IMG/VR virus record: IMGVR_UViG_3300031754_000002
Location: 1 to 64,000 of that record
Direction: 5' to 3' (one strand)
DNA length: 64,000 nucleotides
Origin: a virus
Shown here: piece by piece, positions 5,716 through 63,563 of the stretch
How the letters are laid out: each line of letters begins with the position of its first letter
Position numbering within the stretch: the first letter of the stretch is position 1
The notes under the pieces: model-generated
The model's database searches: none
Seen by the model: only the letters and a program-made list of their open reading frames with translations
Told to the model about the DNA's origin: nothing
Translations under genes and position numbers: made by a program

Positions 5716-6171
5716 GTGTGGCGTGAGTGGCTAGCGTCGCTCGATCCCGGCATCGCACCCTTTGTCGATGTACTGCACGCCCACGGGATCGGGACAACAG
5801 AATCTTGCCAGGGTGGGAAGGGGCATGCGTTCCCTGAGCCAACGGTCTGCTTTGACGGGGATCTCAGTGAGGGCTACCGGGCTGCTGCGATAGCCCTCAC
5901 TCACAGCCTGCCGGTGTCCTCGATCCGCCGCTGCTGGCCGATCCACAGCTCCGGGGAGTTGACTGGGCCGGAATGGCAAATCGTGTTCTCACGGACAGCA
6001 CGCGAGGGCGATGTAAACCCAGACTCGCTGCCGGATGAGATGGAGATGATGGCCCGTGGCTACCTGGACCGGCGTGCTAAGAGGACTGTTGAGCCGTCGT
6101 ATCTAGATCATCGCAGCGTTTGCAGCGTATGCGTCCATTGCGGCCGGGCTCCCGATGACGCTGCTGAATGA
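5716..6171 (+). CDS. Hypothetical protein with LDPGI...G..T.ESC.G..GH motif; paralog of 9271-9753
   Basis: LDPGIAPFVDVLHAHGIGTTESCQGGKGHAFPEPTV vs LDPGVAPYVDALREAGVETFESCEGGRERGHCYPEPTV. Confidence 0.75.
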   Translation: MWREWLASLDPGIAPFVDVLHAHGIGTTESCQGGKGHAFPEPTVCFDGDLSEGYRAAAIALTHSLPVSSIRRCWPIHSSGELTGPEWQIVFSRTAREGDVNPDSLPDEMEMMARGYLDRRAKRTVEPSYLDHRSVCSVCVHCGRAPDDAAE

Positions 6172-6348
6172 GCTTCCCGTGGCCGCATTCGTCGCTGTCG
6201 TGGTAGCGACGCTTCTCGTCGGCCTCGTACTCGTCGGAGTTCGTGTGGAACGGCTGCACTTTGGTCATTGCGTGTCCTTCCGGTCGCGGATTCCTCGCAA
6301 CGCTAAAGGACGGGGGAAGGCTGCGTCAGCCCGCGTTTTTGACCTACT

Positions 6349-6376
6349 GCTTGTCATAATCTGCATCATCGGGCGT
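6349..6376 (-). promoter_or_regulatory. dif-like XerC/XerD site
   Basis: ACGCCCGATGA-TGCAGA-TTATGACAAGC. Confidence 0.6.
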
Positions 6377-6617
6377 AGGGGAGAAGCCCGCAAAGTTCCA
6401 TGTAATCGACGCTTTCCCCAGTCGTGCTGTATGCTGCCGGCAGTAGAGCGCCCCCCGGCACGAGTGCACCGAACCGAGGGGCTACACCAAGGAGGCCAGT
6501 CCTTGATGTACCAGCATCCTATAACGTCCCGCGCGTCAAGTCCAGATAGCGGACTTTCCACGGACGCGCTTACGACCCCTGTTGTCGTGTCCGAAGCCCT
6601 GTCTAGCGTCTCGCGGC

Positions 6618-6740
6618 GCAGGCGTGGCGGAATTGGTAGACGCACCGGACCTTTAATCCGGCGGCAACACGTCAGAACCCTGAGACCAAGAATCAAGGGC
6701 GTCCTGACCGGCCATGTGGGTTCGACTCCCACCGCCTGTA
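6618..6740 (+). tRNA. Atypical tRNA: Leu-type body, loop CCTTTAA (anticodon TTT), variable arm of about 53 nt
   Basis: Acceptor GCAGGCG/CGCCTGT+A; D arm GCGGAATTGGTAGACGC; anticodon stem CCGGA/TCCGG; T arm GTGGG-TTCGACT-CCCAC. Confidence 0.8.
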
Positions 6741-6963
6741 CGCAGGCTATTCGACTCTGCTCCTGCTTGTTCCTGCTTGTGCTCTCGCTGGTGCCCCAAA
6801 CCGTCAGGGGCAACAGGTGAGGCATCCGAAGCCATGTCTAGTTTACGGGGTGCTTCTCGTTCGCGCGGGGAACGATGACCTTCGTAGTTCAGCGGATCGA
6901 GCGCTTTTGTCGCATCCGAAGCATACTCTAGCCTGCGGGGGCTTCCTTGACGGGGAGCGGTCA

Positions 6964-7036
6964 GCCTCCGTAGCTCAGTGGATAGAGCAGTCTTCTAGCG
7001 ATGGACAGGTCCCGAGTTCGACTCTCGGCGGGGGCG
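6964..7036 (+). tRNA. Atypical tRNA: Arg-like body with anticodon AGC
   Basis: GCCTCCG/CGGGGGC+G; GCTC-AGTGGATA-GAGC; GTCTT-CTAGCGA-TGGAC; CCGAG-TTCGACT-CTCGG. Confidence 0.8.
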
Positions 7037-7277
7037 TCAGGCCGGTATTCGGCACGCCACACGCCGCTTCCTGCATAGCTCGATTCCGACCTCTCGCTGC
7101 GGTACGCTTCTCAGTGCTAGAGGACTGCCCACCGGAGCTAGACCACGATCCCTTGTGGTTCGCTTCCGCTAAGGGCTTGAGGGGTCTGCTTCGGCAGGCC
7201 CCTCACTATGCTCGCACGCTTCTACTCGCCGTCTCCCTCTCGCTGGTGCTACCAGCTACAGCCCAGGTCTGTAAAGG

Positions 7278-8093
7278 ATGAGGGGCTTCGGCAGTATCGA
7301 GCGCGCGCACGGAGTCGATGAGCCCGACTATGAGCCACCGGCACGCGCCGAGAGGATGGTTGAGACAGGCGACCGCTTGCAGTCGGCTGCCAGCCGGATG
7401 GCATCCTTCGGTGGCTCGCTCGTCCGTCTCGGCTGCTCGGGGTCTGTGCTACTCGCCATCGTTCTGATCGTCGCTGGAGCGTTCTCAAGCCACTCCGCGA
7501 ACAGCAGCCCACCGGAATCCATAACGACAAGCGCCGAAGAACAGACCACGACTGCTGCGAGTACGCCAGCACCAGCCAAGACGGTCGCTAGCAAACTACA
7601 GGCCACGACCTCGTGCGGCAATGAAGGGCAGACCGACTTTGGCGTGTCTGTCAACGCGAACACGAGCTGCCCGTTTGCGATGGCCGTCCTCAAAGCCTAC
7701 GTGCAGGCCGGGTGGGCACCTAGCACGCCGAAGGCCGCAACGGTCAGCGCGTGGAGTCCCACCACACACAAGTCCTACAGCATGTCGTGTGCCGCGCTCT
7801 CAAGCGAAGCCATCGGTTGCTCTGGCGCCAATCACGCGTATCTCACATTTCAGATAGCCGTCGGCAGCGCGATAGCCAGCCAGGAACTTGAAGCCCAACG
7901 CAGTTCCGAAGGCGGCGACCAAGTTGGTTCCCTGAGCCACGCCACGGATGAACAGTTCTGCGAAGAACATGAATGTATCGGTAGTTTCACCAGCGAGGAA
8001 GGCACCGTTGTTGAATGCGCTGACGGCACCTATAGCCATGCGGGCGGTATCTCGGGTGCTTGCTCGGACCATGGCGGGGAGCGAGAAGGGTGA
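7278..8093 (+). CDS. Membrane-anchored Cys-rich extracellular protein with C-terminal DUF3761-like motif
   Basis: TM segment VLLAIVLIVAGAF; S/T linker; ECADGTYSHAGGISGACSDHGG. Confidence 0.75.
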   Translation: MRGFGSIERAHGVDEPDYEPPARAERMVETGDRLQSAASRMASFGGSLVRLGCSGSVLLAIVLIVAGAFSSHSANSSPPESITTSAEEQTTTAASTPAPAKTVASKLQATTSCGNEGQTDFGVSVNANTSCPFAMAVLKAYVQAGWAPSTPKAATVSAWSPTTHKSYSMSCAALSSEAIGCSGANHAYLTFQIAVGSAIASQELEAQRSSEGGDQVGSLSHATDEQFCEEHECIGSFTSEEGTVVECADGTYSHAGGISGACSDHGGEREG

Positions 8094-55681: not shown

Positions 55682-55773
55682 TGCGCCAGATGGGACTCGA
55701 ACCCACATCCGCCTCCTTGAAAGAGAGGTGCTGGGGACCGGGTTACGGTCTCTACCAATTCAGCTACTGACGC
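55682..55773 (-). tRNA. tRNA-Glu(TTC) with an extra hairpin in the D loop
   Basis: GCGTCAG/CTGGCGC+A; GCTG...CAGC D stem enclosing GACCG-TAACC-CGGTC; CCTCT-CTTTCAA-GGAGG; GTGGG-TTCGAGT-CCCAT. Confidence 0.8.
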
Positions 55774-58696: not shown

Positions 58697-58942
58697 TCAG
58701 CGATGAGCTGCCTTGCTCCACCGCGCCTTCGCGGCGCGTTTGGCGGACTCGCTTCGCTCCTCGGCTGTCAAGGTTGCCGCGCGGGCCTTCCCGCCCTTCT
58801 GACCGCCCTTGCGCCCGCGTGCGATGGCTTTGGGGTCCTTCCCGGCATTCGGGTCGGGGTCCTCGACCTGCCCCGTGGCGATGTCCACGATGAGCTTTCC
58901 GAGCTGGTTCGGGTCGCGCGGCCGTCGTGGATGCGTGGTCAT
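58697..58942 (-). CDS. Small basic protein divergent from the IS1 transposase
   Basis: RPRDPNQL...GRKGGQKGGKARA...AAKARW. Confidence 0.8.
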   Translation of the reverse strand: MTTHPRRPRDPNQLGKLIVDIATGQVEDPDPNAGKDPKAIARGRKGGQKGGKARAATLTAEERSESAKRAAKARWSKAAHR

Positions 58943-59009
58943 ACCGAGCATCGTAGCGCTGCTGTTGGAGGGAGTTTTTCCGTCCGACGTATCACGCATA
59001 ATGTTCAGT

Positions 59010-59849
59010 ATGAACAGGTTGTCCACCGAGAAGCGCGCCGCGATCCTCGGAATGATGGTTGAGGGCAACAGCCTTCGCGCGACGACCCGCATGGCAGGCT
59101 GCTCGATCAACACCGTCTCGAAGCTGCTGCTGGACATTGGTGAGGCATGCGCCTCCTACCAGGACGAGCATCTACGGGACCTGCCATGCAAGACGATCGA
59201 GGCAGACGAGATTTGGTCGTTCGTCGCCTACAAGGAGCGAAACAAGCCAGCCGAGATGAAGGGCACGTTCGGCACCGGCGATGTCTGGACATGGACGGCG
59301 CTCGACGCCGACTCCAAGCTCATCGTGTGCTGGTACGTGGGCGACCGGAAATACGAGGACGCCGCCGCGTTCATGCTGGACCTCAAGGACCGTCTACGCG
59401 ACCGCATCCAGCTCACGACGGACGGGCACGCCGCCTACCCGAATGCGGTCGGCCTGGCGTTCCGCCACAACATCGACTTTGCGCAGCTCATCAAGCAGTA
59501 CGCAGCGGACCCACGCACCGGACAGGCTCGCTACAGCCCGCCAGTCTGCACAGGAGCGCGCGTCCGTGTCGATCGCGGCAACCCGGACCCCGCGAAGATC
59601 AGCACGTCCTACGTCGAGCGCCAGAACCTCACGATGCGGATGGGTATGCGCCGCTTCACACGGCTGACCAACGGCTTCTCGAAGAAGCTCGACAACCACA
59701 TGGCCTCCATCGCCCTGCACTTCATGCACTACAACTTCGGCCGTCCGCACACCAGCCTCAAGAACCCCTACCCGCGCACGCCAGCGATGGCCGCAGGCGT
59801 CGCCGACCACATCTGGACCCTGCAAGAGATCGCGGGGCTACTCGATTGA
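59010..59849 (+). CDS. IS1-family DDE transposase
   Basis: ADEIWSFV, WTWTALDADSKL, TTDG, TSYVERQNLTMR. Confidence 0.92.
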   Translation: MNRLSTEKRAAILGMMVEGNSLRATTRMAGCSINTVSKLLLDIGEACASYQDEHLRDLPCKTIEADEIWSFVAYKERNKPAEMKGTFGTGDVWTWTALDADSKLIVCWYVGDRKYEDAAAFMLDLKDRLRDRIQLTTDGHAAYPNAVGLAFRHNIDFAQLIKQYAADPRTGQARYSPPVCTGARVRVDRGNPDPAKISTSYVERQNLTMRMGMRRFTRLTNGFSKKLDNHMASIALHFMHYNFGRPHTSLKNPYPRTPAMAAGVADHIWTLQEIAGLLD

Positions 59850-62270: not shown

Positions 62271-62426
62271 ACCGCATCCTGAATGCGCCGGATGACTCGT
62301 TCGCTGGTGTAAGTGCGATGATACCCGCAGAGCTTGGCCGTGTCGGCTACTCTTTCAACTCCGATATCCCCGTGCCGGCCGGCAGCACAGTCATCGGGGA
62401 TTATCCCCTTGACACAGGGTCGGATA

Positions 62427-62579
62427 TCAGCTAGAGTCCTTCTTAGTGGACTCTTTTGCCTTTGGTTTCCGGGCTTTTTGGGCCTCTGCGCGCACCGCTT
62501 CCCGTGCTTGCTTGGGGAACATTCGCTGCGCGACCTGCTCGTTTGTGAGGTCGTGGGCCTTGGGCTTCGCTCGTGGCAT
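62427..62579 (-). CDS. Small basic protein divergent from the IS1595 transposase
   Basis: MPRAKPKAHDLTNEQVAQRMFP... Confidence 0.6.
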   Translation of the reverse strand: MPRAKPKAHDLTNEQVAQRMFPKQAREAVRAEAQKARKPKAKESTKKDSS

Positions 62580-62591
62580 GGTGGCTCTCTG

Positions 62592-63563
62592 ATGGAGTCT
62601 ACGACGCTTGTGGGCCTGATCGAGGAGTTCGGCAGCGAGGAGAAGTGCCGCGCCTATCTTGAGGATCTGCGTTGGCCCGCTGGCCCCGAGTGCCCGCGCT
62701 GCGACGAGCCGACCACCGTTTCGCGGATCGCCTCGCGCAACCAGTTCGAGTGCGACAAGTGCCGCTACCAGTTCTCGGTCACGGCTGGGACGCTGTTCCA
62801 CGACTCGCACCTGCCGTTGTGGAAGTGGTTCCTCGCGGTCTACCTGATGTGCGAGAGCAAGAAGGGCATCAGCGCCAAGCAGCTACACCGGATGCTCGGC
62901 GGCTCGTATAAGACGAGTTGGTATCTCTGCCACCGCGTCAGAGCGGCAATGGGCGAGGACGAACAGCCGCTACTGACCGGCACGGTGGAGGTTGACGAGA
63001 CCTACGTCGGCGGCAAACGCAAAGGCTACGGCGCCGGATATCGCGGGAACAAGGTCATCGTGGCCGGTGCGATCGAGCGCGGCGGCGACATACGCCTACG
63101 GCTCGTCCCGAACACCCGCCGCCACAACCTGGAGCAGTTCATCGACTCCACCGTCTCAGACGACACGGAGGCGGTCTACACGGACGAGTTGAAGTCCTAT
63201 GACGGCATCGCGGGCGAGAACCACCAGACCGTCGAGCACAAAGCCGAAGAATGGGTGCGGGGCGAGGTTCACACGAACAGCGTCGAGTCTGCCTGGAGCC
63301 TGCTCAAGCGCTCGATCGTGGGGACCTACCACCATATGAGCGTCAAGCACCTGCCCGCGTATCTGGCGGAGATGGAATGGCGCTTCAACCGCCGCGAGAA
63401 CCCCTACCTATTCAGAGACACGCTGCTGGTGCTCCTCCACGGAGACGCGCTGCCCTACAGCGTTCTGATCGAACGCGACGACCCCGGCGAGCGCCAGCGC
63501 GAGAACGACGCACTCATGCGGCGAGAGGCGAAGCGTCAGGCACGCCAGCAGCGCCCGTGCTAG
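62592..63563 (+). CDS. IS1595-family (ISXO2-like) transposase
   Basis: Zn ribbon CPRC...CDKC; VEVDETYVGG, YTDE, HTNSVESAWSLLKR. Confidence 0.93.
   Translation: MESTTLVGLIEEFGSEEKCRAYLEDLRWPAGPECPRCDEPTTVSRIASRNQFECDKCRYQFSVTAGTLFHDSHLPLWKWFLAVYLMCESKKGISAKQLHRMLGGSYKTSWYLCHRVRAAMGEDEQPLLTGTVEVDETYVGGKRKGYGAGYRGNKVIVAGAIERGGDIRLRLVPNTRRHNLEQFIDSTVSDDTEAVYTDELKSYDGIAGENHQTVEHKAEEWVRGEVHTNSVESAWSLLKRSIVGTYHHMSVKHLPAYLAEMEWRFNRRENPYLFRDTLLVLLHGDALPYSVLIERDDPGERQRENDALMRREAKRQARQQRPC

Follow-up and report, generated by a model that had tools for sequence, protein, structure and literature searches.

The phage genome recorded as IMGVR_UViG_3300031754_000002 carries, at positions 6618 to 6740 of its plus strand, a 123-nucleotide (nt) tRNA-shaped gene, here called t1, that joins a leucine-type frame to a UUU anticodon and a 54-nt variable region. 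The stretch analysed (the window) is the first 64,000 nt of this record, which is 105,858 bp long and rated complete. Our tentative reading, ranked first among those considered and held with less than even confidence, is that t1 is a maintained tRNA-shaped RNA serving as a spare or decoy in a tRNA-centred conflict between phage and host. It would have been built from a host-type tRNA-Leu in which a Lys/Asn-type arm showing UUU, with C in place of U33, replaced the anticodon arm, and whose variable-arm loop took up about 45 nt, a site where extra RNA leaves the tRNA core undisturbed. Transcribed separately from its own promoter-like element, t1 would form, with two further genes of the same phage (t2 and t3), a set of tRNAs in which frame and anticodon do not belong together. 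The altered bodies would present the anticodon arms usual for attack by anticodon nucleases (Lys-UUU, Glu-UUC) and could act as nuclease-insensitive spares or decoys alongside the RtcB ligase, Ro60 and Y RNA of the phage.

A complete cloverleaf with a 54-nt variable region

Against the Rfam tRNA model RF00005, t1 scores 50.9 bits (curated cut-off 29; E 5.5e-8 over the whole window), with 71 of 71 model positions aligned, acceptor, D, anticodon and T arms all present, and about 50 nt placed as an insertion in the variable region. The unconstrained minimum free energy (MFE) fold of the 123 nt is the same cloverleaf, without a mispair in any stem. The acceptor stem forms all seven of its pairs (G1.U72 included), the D stem GCG/CGC closes the loop GAAUUGGUAGA and the T arm reads GUGGG-UUCGACU-CCCAC. 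A73 lies at 6740 and CCA is not encoded. The RF00005 alignment places the anticodon arm, CCGGA-CCTTTAA-TCCGG, at 6645 to 6661 on the plus strand; it is of Lys/Asn type with U33 replaced by C. Its loop occupies 6650-6656, with C33 at 6651 and the TTT anticodon at 6652-6654. C33 is rare: of the tRNAs of a genome from the probable host lineage, 45 of 46 have U33, as do 144 of the 150 ordinary tRNAs at the phage loci compared.

Folds and comparison with host tRNA-Leu define the variable region at 6662 to 6715 (plus strand) as a GGC/GCC base carrying an irregular hairpin of about 45 nt with a 14-nt end loop. Its stems are GGC 6663-6665 with GCC 6711-6713, GTCAG 6671-6675 with CTGAC 6704-6708, and CCCT 6678-6681 with AGGG 6696-6699. 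At 54 nt the region lies outside the natural range of 4-5 nt or, for class II tRNAs, about 10-24 nt. An earlier note on this DNA, made from its letters, had described a 123-nt tRNA with loop CCTTTAA, C33, TTT and A73, and a variable region of about 53 nt folded into these same nested stems; alignment and fold confirm this description. ARAGORN, which the note proposed as a check, makes no call in its default mode and, with introns allowed, miscalls the gene as tRNA-Gln(ttg) with an intron.

No second copy of the variable-region insert was found in the phage genome, and this single copy ruled out a repeated mobile hairpin. We also considered pairing of the arm's end loop CCAAGAA with the anticodon and set it aside, as only three pairs form and nothing comparable exists in the most similar gene found elsewhere (L040, described below).

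A leucine-type frame carrying a replaced anticodon arm

The full set of 47 tRNAs from Paraconexibacter antarcticus, which belongs to the probable host order, served for comparison of the frame. Over its full length t1 matches tRNA-Leu genes best: at its 5' end, 24 of 26 positions are identical to tRNA-Leu(UAG) and tRNA-Leu(GAG), and its 3' end CCGCCUGUA matches CCGCCCGCA of tRNA-Leu(UAG), A73 included. Where the stems depart from host-lineage tRNA-Leu, pairing is kept (3:70 from G-C to A-U, 50:64 from G.U to U-A). With bacterial class II tRNA-Leu the gene has in common the acceptor stem, A73, the D arm GGCGGAAUUGGUAGACGC with its 3-bp stem, a paired variable arm with the same base, and the T arm; it differs in the UUU anticodon, where tRNA-Leu has NAG or YAA, in C33, and in the 54 nt of its variable region against about 14-18 nt in the host lineage. 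The class I frame of host-lineage tRNA-Lys, with D arm AGCUCAGUUGGUAGAGC and a 5-nt variable loop, is not that of t1. The 'Leu-type body' of the earlier note is thus borne out by the 5' identity, the 3' acceptor strand, A73 and the base of the variable arm.

That base, GGC...GCC-AUG, corresponds to GGU-GCAA-GCC-GUG of host tRNA-Leu(UAG), with about 45 nt in place of the tetraloop. Because the base matches the host arm, we read the giant arm as the variable arm of a leucine tRNA whose loop has gained about 45 nt. The anticodon stem differs from the leucine stem at every position, yet is fully paired around a loop of exactly 7 nt, which points to replacement rather than drift. Host-lineage tRNA-Lys loops are CUUUUAA and CUCUUAA; CCUUUAA of t1 is the UUU loop with U33 changed to C.

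For the function of t1 the earlier note offered a Lys-to-Leu missense tRNA, an anticodon-nuclease decoy or a tRNA-scaffolded ncRNA. A leucine frame under a UUU anticodon could make t1 such a missense tRNA, charged by leucyl-tRNA synthetase (LeuRS) whatever its anticodon and placing leucine at AAA and AAG. Neither the anticodon nor the variable arm matters to bacterial LeuRS, and t1 does have the leucine-type frame, the leucine D arm and A73. Such decoding would, however, put at risk the phage's own 1,052 Lys codons, and C33 should lower it. In an alignment of the capsid protein, AAA and AAG fall in columns of K, R or A and never in one dominated by L, and GAA falls at invariant E. The phage by this evidence uses the standard code and its own proteins would be damaged, so that a purposeful Lys-to-Leu tRNA is disfavoured. 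Managed mistranslation of the tRNA-ProA/ProRSx type differs in having a dedicated synthetase; class Ia and class IIb synthetase domains, the families searched, were not found in the phage (other synthetase families were not searched), nor was any other sign of managed mistranslation. We consider the missense role improbable.

Cultured phages show that such a frame can be combined with other anticodons. Pseudomonas phage Kremar has the D arm of t1 on a tRNA-Gln(UUG), and Caulobacter phages CcrColossus and CcrPW have it on a tRNA-Asn(GUU) with a class-II-like frame and a paired variable arm. In CcrColossus the anticodon stem CCGGA/UCCGG is identical to that of t1 and the loop, CUGUUAA, is of Lys/Asn type. 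All of these differ from t1 in having U33 and a normal size of 77-89 nt. A Certrevirus tRNA-Ser(GCU) likewise combines the D arm of t1 and the same anticodon stem with the loop C(U/C)GCUAA. Since this D arm also occurs in cultured phages under Gln and Asn anticodons, the frame is a weak guide to the charging of t1. The CcrColossus gene (69054-69142) is annotated as tRNA-Asn(GUU) and has 89 nt, a leucine-type D arm, the variable arm GUCUC-GCAA-GAGAC and G73, so that here a cultured phage serves a class I amino acid with a class-II-shaped tRNA.

Companion tRNAs with mismatched frames and anticodons

Rfam gives six tRNA matches in the phage genome. Two are ordinary, a tRNA-Met(CAU) and a tRNA-Ala(UGC) with G3:U70. 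The gene t2 (55682 to 55773, minus strand; 92 nt; 56.9 bits), missed by ARAGORN, shows the anticodon UUC in the loop CUUUCAA. It aligns as a class I tRNA whose D loop, closed by the D stem GCUG/CAGC, carries an inserted 20-nt hairpin (GACCG-UAACC-CGGUC). With t1 it has in common the T arm, the variable-loop ends CGG..AU and the D loop AAUUGGUAGA, and its best host-lineage matches are tRNA-Leu. The gene t3 (6964 to 7036, plus strand; 54.3 bits) has an arginine-type frame, the loop CUAGCGA (anticodon AGC), G73 and C3:G70; its closest host-lineage match is tRNA-Arg(ACG), at 59 of 73 positions. Arginyl-tRNA synthetase needs C35 and alanyl-tRNA synthetase needs G3:U70. Both are absent from t3, and the lack of either identity set fits a non-decoding role. 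A lake-water metagenome contig holds a copy of t3 that is about 94% alike, with A73 and different DNA upstream. In each of t1, t2 and t3, therefore, frame and anticodon come from different kinds of tRNA. A tRNA fragment at 105258-105317 of the record (plus strand) covers model positions 7-64 only, with loop CUUAAGA (UAA) and no acceptor stem; it lies near the contig end, inside a small open reading frame (ORF).

The phage tRNAs could instead be ordinary helpers in translation. For t1 this would mean that host lysyl-tRNA synthetase (LysRS) charges it with lysine, that it decodes AAA and AAG, and that the big arm and C33 are tolerated. UUU together with A73 is the known LysRS identity set, and t1 has both. 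The anticodons UUU, UUC, AGC and UGC and the partial UAA all read A/U-ending codons, and across 111 phage ORFs AAA makes up 36% of Lys codons, GAA 45% of Glu codons, and GCU plus GCA 33% of Ala codons. At about 59% G+C the phage is much poorer in these bases than its probable host order, which is very G+C-rich. The cultured-phage tRNAs point the same way, with the D arm of t1 on a tRNA-Gln and a class-II-like frame on a tRNA-Asn whose G73 suits Asn. However, the leucine-type frame and A73 of t1 should attract LeuRS; class II synthetases approach the tRNA from the variable-loop side, where we would expect a 54-nt arm to obstruct them; C33 weakens the U-turn; t1 has no homologs; and t2 and t3 lack identity sets matching their anticodons. 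To our knowledge, no tRNA with a variable region this long works on ribosomes. We regard the helper role as possible but doubtful, second in rank to a spare or decoy.

An RNA-repair cassette in the same genome

The phage also encodes an RNA-repair cassette, whose coordinates refer to the 105,858-bp record and lie beyond the 64-kb window. On the minus strand, Ro60/Rsr (94617-96290; TROVE and Ro60 vWA domains) is directly followed by RtcB (93326-94612; Pfam 3.9e-61). Upstream of both lies a YrlA-like Y RNA (96480 to 96358, minus strand), in which all 114 positions of RF02553 align at 32.2 bits (E 3e-4), below the Rfam cut-off, and upstream of this RNA a weak tRNA-like element (96630 to 96560, minus strand). 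The rsr-Y RNA-rtcB arrangement is known from bacteria and phages (PMC4201824, PMC7790460, PMC7824862). When anticodon nucleases cut, they leave 2',3'-cyclic-phosphate/5'-OH ends, which RtcB can seal (Tanaka and Shuman 2011, cited in PMC7824862). With the two further odd tRNAs, this cassette gives t1 a genomic context that favours the decoy or spare reading.

Precedents for such a conflict exist in cultured phages. Phages carry spare tRNAs that resist host anticodon nucleases, as does the tRNA-Lys of T5 against PARIS, and T4 repairs tRNA-Lys cut by PrrC. The likeness lies in a phage-borne Lys UUU tRNA with an RNA-repair ligase, here RtcB, alongside; the difference is that the tRNAs in the T5 and T4 systems are of normal size and frame.

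A tRNA-splicing-type ligase also raises the question of whether the inserts are intervening sequences, 45-50 nt in t1 and 20 nt in t2, that would be excised, with the phage RtcB then sealing the halves into a tRNA of 75 nt. Without 6665-6712 the variable loop of t1 would read CGGAU, identical to that of t2, and other tRNA genes of Ro60-encoding phages have 28-77-nt inserts in the anticodon loop that would need removal for decoding. Archaeal non-canonical tRNA introns resemble this arrangement in having extra self-paired RNA at the variable loop (as in t1) or D loop (as in t2) and in the RtcB-type ligase. They differ in their bulge-helix-bulge, a geometry absent from the inspected folds of both inserts, and in their splicing endonuclease; the host here is bacterial, and neither a splicing endonuclease (EndA) nor archease, nor a CCA-adding enzyme, was found in the phage. 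A permissive Rfam scan of 6000-7600 (E up to 10) returned no ribozyme or intron family. Both inserts stand at sites where a tRNA can keep them, and the base of the t1 arm matches a normal leucine variable arm rather than an intron. Excision therefore seems very improbable to us.

The inserts that do interrupt anticodon loops were seen in phages encoding relatives of Ro60, several of whose tRNA genes have hairpins of 28-77 nt directly after the anticodon (for example CU-UUU-[insert]-AAA). Two adjoining genes of this kind have a common insert holding a T-arm-like hairpin, and similar inserts, with the loop GUUGAA(A)CAA, occur in two IMG/VR contigs (L014 and L051). By sequence, these look like small introns.

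The extra arm might instead be a handle for Ro60 (Rsr), comparable to the stem of a Y RNA and grafted on a whole tRNA. The phage has both Ro60 and the YrlA-like RNA, and the motif GCAACAC is common to the t1 arm and the 3' strand of the YrlA-like RNA stem, in an internal loop of the strand leading away from the tRNA part, with CCGG opposite. This 7-mer match is weak evidence, and t1 lies about 88 kb from rsr. Thirteen Y RNAs beside related phage Ro60 genes have in common the conserved motifs GCCGRAAG (5' strand) and CACAUGCC or CCACGCC (3' strand), none of which occurs in t1. The Ro-binding motif of Y RNA, to which GCCGRAAG corresponds, is GNCGAAN0-1G (PMC4201824); the best match to it in t1 is ACCGGC. 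YrlA-type Y RNAs (RF02553; Chen et al. 2014, PMC4201824) resemble t1 in combining a tRNA-like body with an extra helix. They differ from it in that t1 is unpermuted, with normal topology, a complete anticodon arm and both ends (5' and 3') free, lies away from rsr and lacks the Ro motifs. A role as Ro60 partner is in our view as remote as excision. A Y-RNA-like helix around t1 (6579-6585 with 6811-6817) was also considered and proved absent from the MFE folds. Directly upstream of the Ro60 gene of another phage we observed a 97-nt RNA (L084; 42387-42483 of its contig) of normal, unpermuted tRNA topology. Its 'anticodon' arm is long and includes ACCGAAUG and CACUUG, and it is possibly an unpermuted Y RNA.

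Relatives of t1 and other oversized phage tRNA-like genes

Neither blastn of 6300-7300 against phages and plasmids nor two scans of metagenome contigs recovered a relative of t1. Exact and degenerate patterns of its anticodon arm plus long arm, or of the long arm alone, had no match in three viral-contig scans, and the anticodon stem-loop pattern CGCACCGGACCNNNAATCCGG had one match, which lies within coding sequence and is not a tRNA. Beyond the source contig, the contig search returned just generic tRNA-Leu D arms from other organisms, and no RNA runs containing the t1 region were listed. The search for covariation in the arm proposed by the earlier note hence met with no homolog in the phage, plasmid, viral-contig or metagenome collections.

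Similar architectures do occur elsewhere. Two pattern scans of IMG/VR contigs, restricted to a leucine-type D arm followed by a long gap and a T loop, yielded about 60 distinct phage sequences with 6-7 of 7 acceptor pairs, intact D and T arms and 50-80 nt between them; a few matches are merely two adjacent genes. One large group has the acceptor AGUCAGG/CCUGACU in common, and in several records the oversized gene is the sole tRNA match. As in t1, their leucine-type frame is complete in its acceptor, D and T parts, around a centre of 50-80 nt. They differ from t1 in that nearly all lack a regular anticodon arm and in that their central sequences are unrelated. The exceptions are L040 (loop UCUAAAC, 35-nt variable region, C33) and L037 (loop ACCAUAA, C33). 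The phages concerned are unrelated to the t1 phage, and the occurrence of about 60 oversized leucine-framed genes in unrelated phage contigs suggests that phages keep such designs. We would place t1 loosely in this scattered group, for which our literature searches found no describing paper. L040, an IMG/VR contig gene and the most similar in architecture, was rejected as an ortholog of t1, since its phage shares no portal match.

Broader still, t1 and t2 might represent an undescribed kind of phage RNA, in which a full and often leucine-type frame, chargeable regardless of anticodon, carries an arm that recruits or blocks a protein, for use with Ro60-RtcB or against host anticodon nucleases; the roughly 60 other genes would follow the same idea with other cargo. 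We offer this as a speculation that is on balance unlikely.

The t1 locus: maintenance or decay

A promoter-like element at 6582 to 6609 (plus strand), with TTGTCG at 6582-6587, a 16-nt spacer and TAGCGT at 6604-6609, ends 8 nt before t1. In actinobacteria the -10 element has the form TANNNT; a generic sigma-70 scan did not call the element. It lies in the first copy of a 35-nt repeat containing ..TCCGAAGC..TCTAG.., of which three copies occur between 6573 and 6932 and none elsewhere in the genome. The third copy has the same form (6907-6934) and precedes t3; the second (6808-6842) precedes a small hairpin and a truncated tRNA 5' piece (6878 to 6904, plus strand; read from sequence), consisting of an acceptor strand and D arm that resemble the 5' half of t3. 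The YrlA-like RNA of the phage likewise has a TANNNT hexamer (TACGCT) 8 nt before its start. The sequence CCGAAG within the repeat was considered as a Ro motif and rejected, as it sits in the promoter spacer.

The gene upstream of t1 is closed by a terminator-like site (6319-6340). On the 3' side of t1, a hairpin at 6779 to 6825 (plus strand), stable in the MFE fold of 6570-6830 and overlapping the second promoter-like repeat, is a possible terminator without a U-tract. None of the ORFs that overlap the locus (6155-6820 and 6817-7281 on the plus strand, 6265-6825 on the minus strand) matches a family, and their third-position G+C is the region's lowest. With its flanking signals, t1 looks like a transcription unit of its own; its expression, like any binding, charging or protection by the RNA, is an inference.

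Maintenance of t1 is supported by its intact stems and pairing-preserving changes, its own promoter-like element and the downstream hairpin. It is further supported by the paralog t2, which has a self-paired insert at a second tolerant site with the D stem preserved.

Several observations nevertheless weigh against a maintained spare or decoy. The folding energy of the arm alone is within chance (z = -1.6; 11 of 200 shuffles fold as well), and since no homolog of t1 was found in any collection searched, neither conservation nor covariation supports it. RtcB and Ro60 lie about 87-88 kb away, and of 26 other phage records in which oversized leucine-framed genes occur, not one has TROVE or RtcB. 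For the probable host, neither an anticodon nuclease nor a target is known, and anticodons that all read A/U-ending codons fit plain codon supply equally well. The cut-down tRNA piece and duplicated modules beside t1 indicate DNA in flux. C33 also occurs in the Certrevirus tRNA-Ser, in one near-identical group whose relatives have U33, and in an apparently ordinary elongator, tRNA-Val(GAC) of P. antarcticus (2633358-2633430; loop UCGACAA). It therefore need be neither disabling nor a designed feature and can, on this comparison, be a simple recent mutation. In view of these two cases we dropped C33 as a hallmark of the oversized genes t1, L040 and L037.

The same observations lend themselves to an account of t1 as evolutionary debris, an acquired copy of tRNA-Leu scrambled by recombination and insertion, harmless and on its way to being lost. 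Besides its orphan status in every collection, C33, the chance-level arm and the adjoining tRNA piece with duplicated promoter modules, this account can draw on the lake-water relative of t3, which has different DNA on the side where t1 lies, and on the other tRNA remnant of the phage, at 105258-105317 without an acceptor stem. Decay would not be expected to leave four perfect stems, changes against host-lineage tRNA-Leu that keep pairing, or a new anticodon stem with every base paired and a loop of exactly 7 nt. The insert pairs with itself and falls exactly within a loop, t2 shows the same tidy insertion, and t1 has a promoter-like element of its own. We judge debris unlikely, though a more serious contender than the missense, intron and Ro60 accounts.

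Our order of preference is accordingly a spare or decoy, then a decoding helper, then debris, with the missense tRNA well behind these and the intron and Ro60 partner last and level. If t1 is functional, phages would rebuild tRNAs in modules (frame, foreign anticodon arm, added arm), which would bear on the rewiring of tRNA identity, on phage answers to tRNA-cutting defences and on RNA genes missed by gene finders. As a test object, t1 could serve to examine how long a variable arm the ribosome and synthetases tolerate and whether C33 protects the anticodon loop from nucleases. If it is a relic, it would be a mere curiosity of tRNA gene decay.

The phage and its probable host

Genes for sheath, baseplate, portal, protease, capsid and tail fibre mark the phage as a myovirus. 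Prophage proteins of a Solirubrobacteraceae genome are 59-61% identical to its capsid protein, and one in P. antarcticus is 45% identical. Because the capsid is closest to prophages of that order, the host probably belongs to the Solirubrobacterales (Actinomycetota). A search with the baseplate protein found no close phage relative. The only full-length match among sequencing runs is a soil metagenome, which may be the source.

Both ends of the record (1-200 of the window; 105659-105858 of the record) consist of CGACCN hexamer repeats. The assembly was probably broken inside one such repeat array, and the genome may therefore be circularly permuted. The phage also contains transposase genes of insertion sequence type, IS1/rve-like and IS1595-like (58809-59849 and 62334-63563 of the window). 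Its large terminase, of 917 aa (65545-68298 of the record), includes a LAGLIDADG-like segment, which suggests an intein or an inserted endonuclease.

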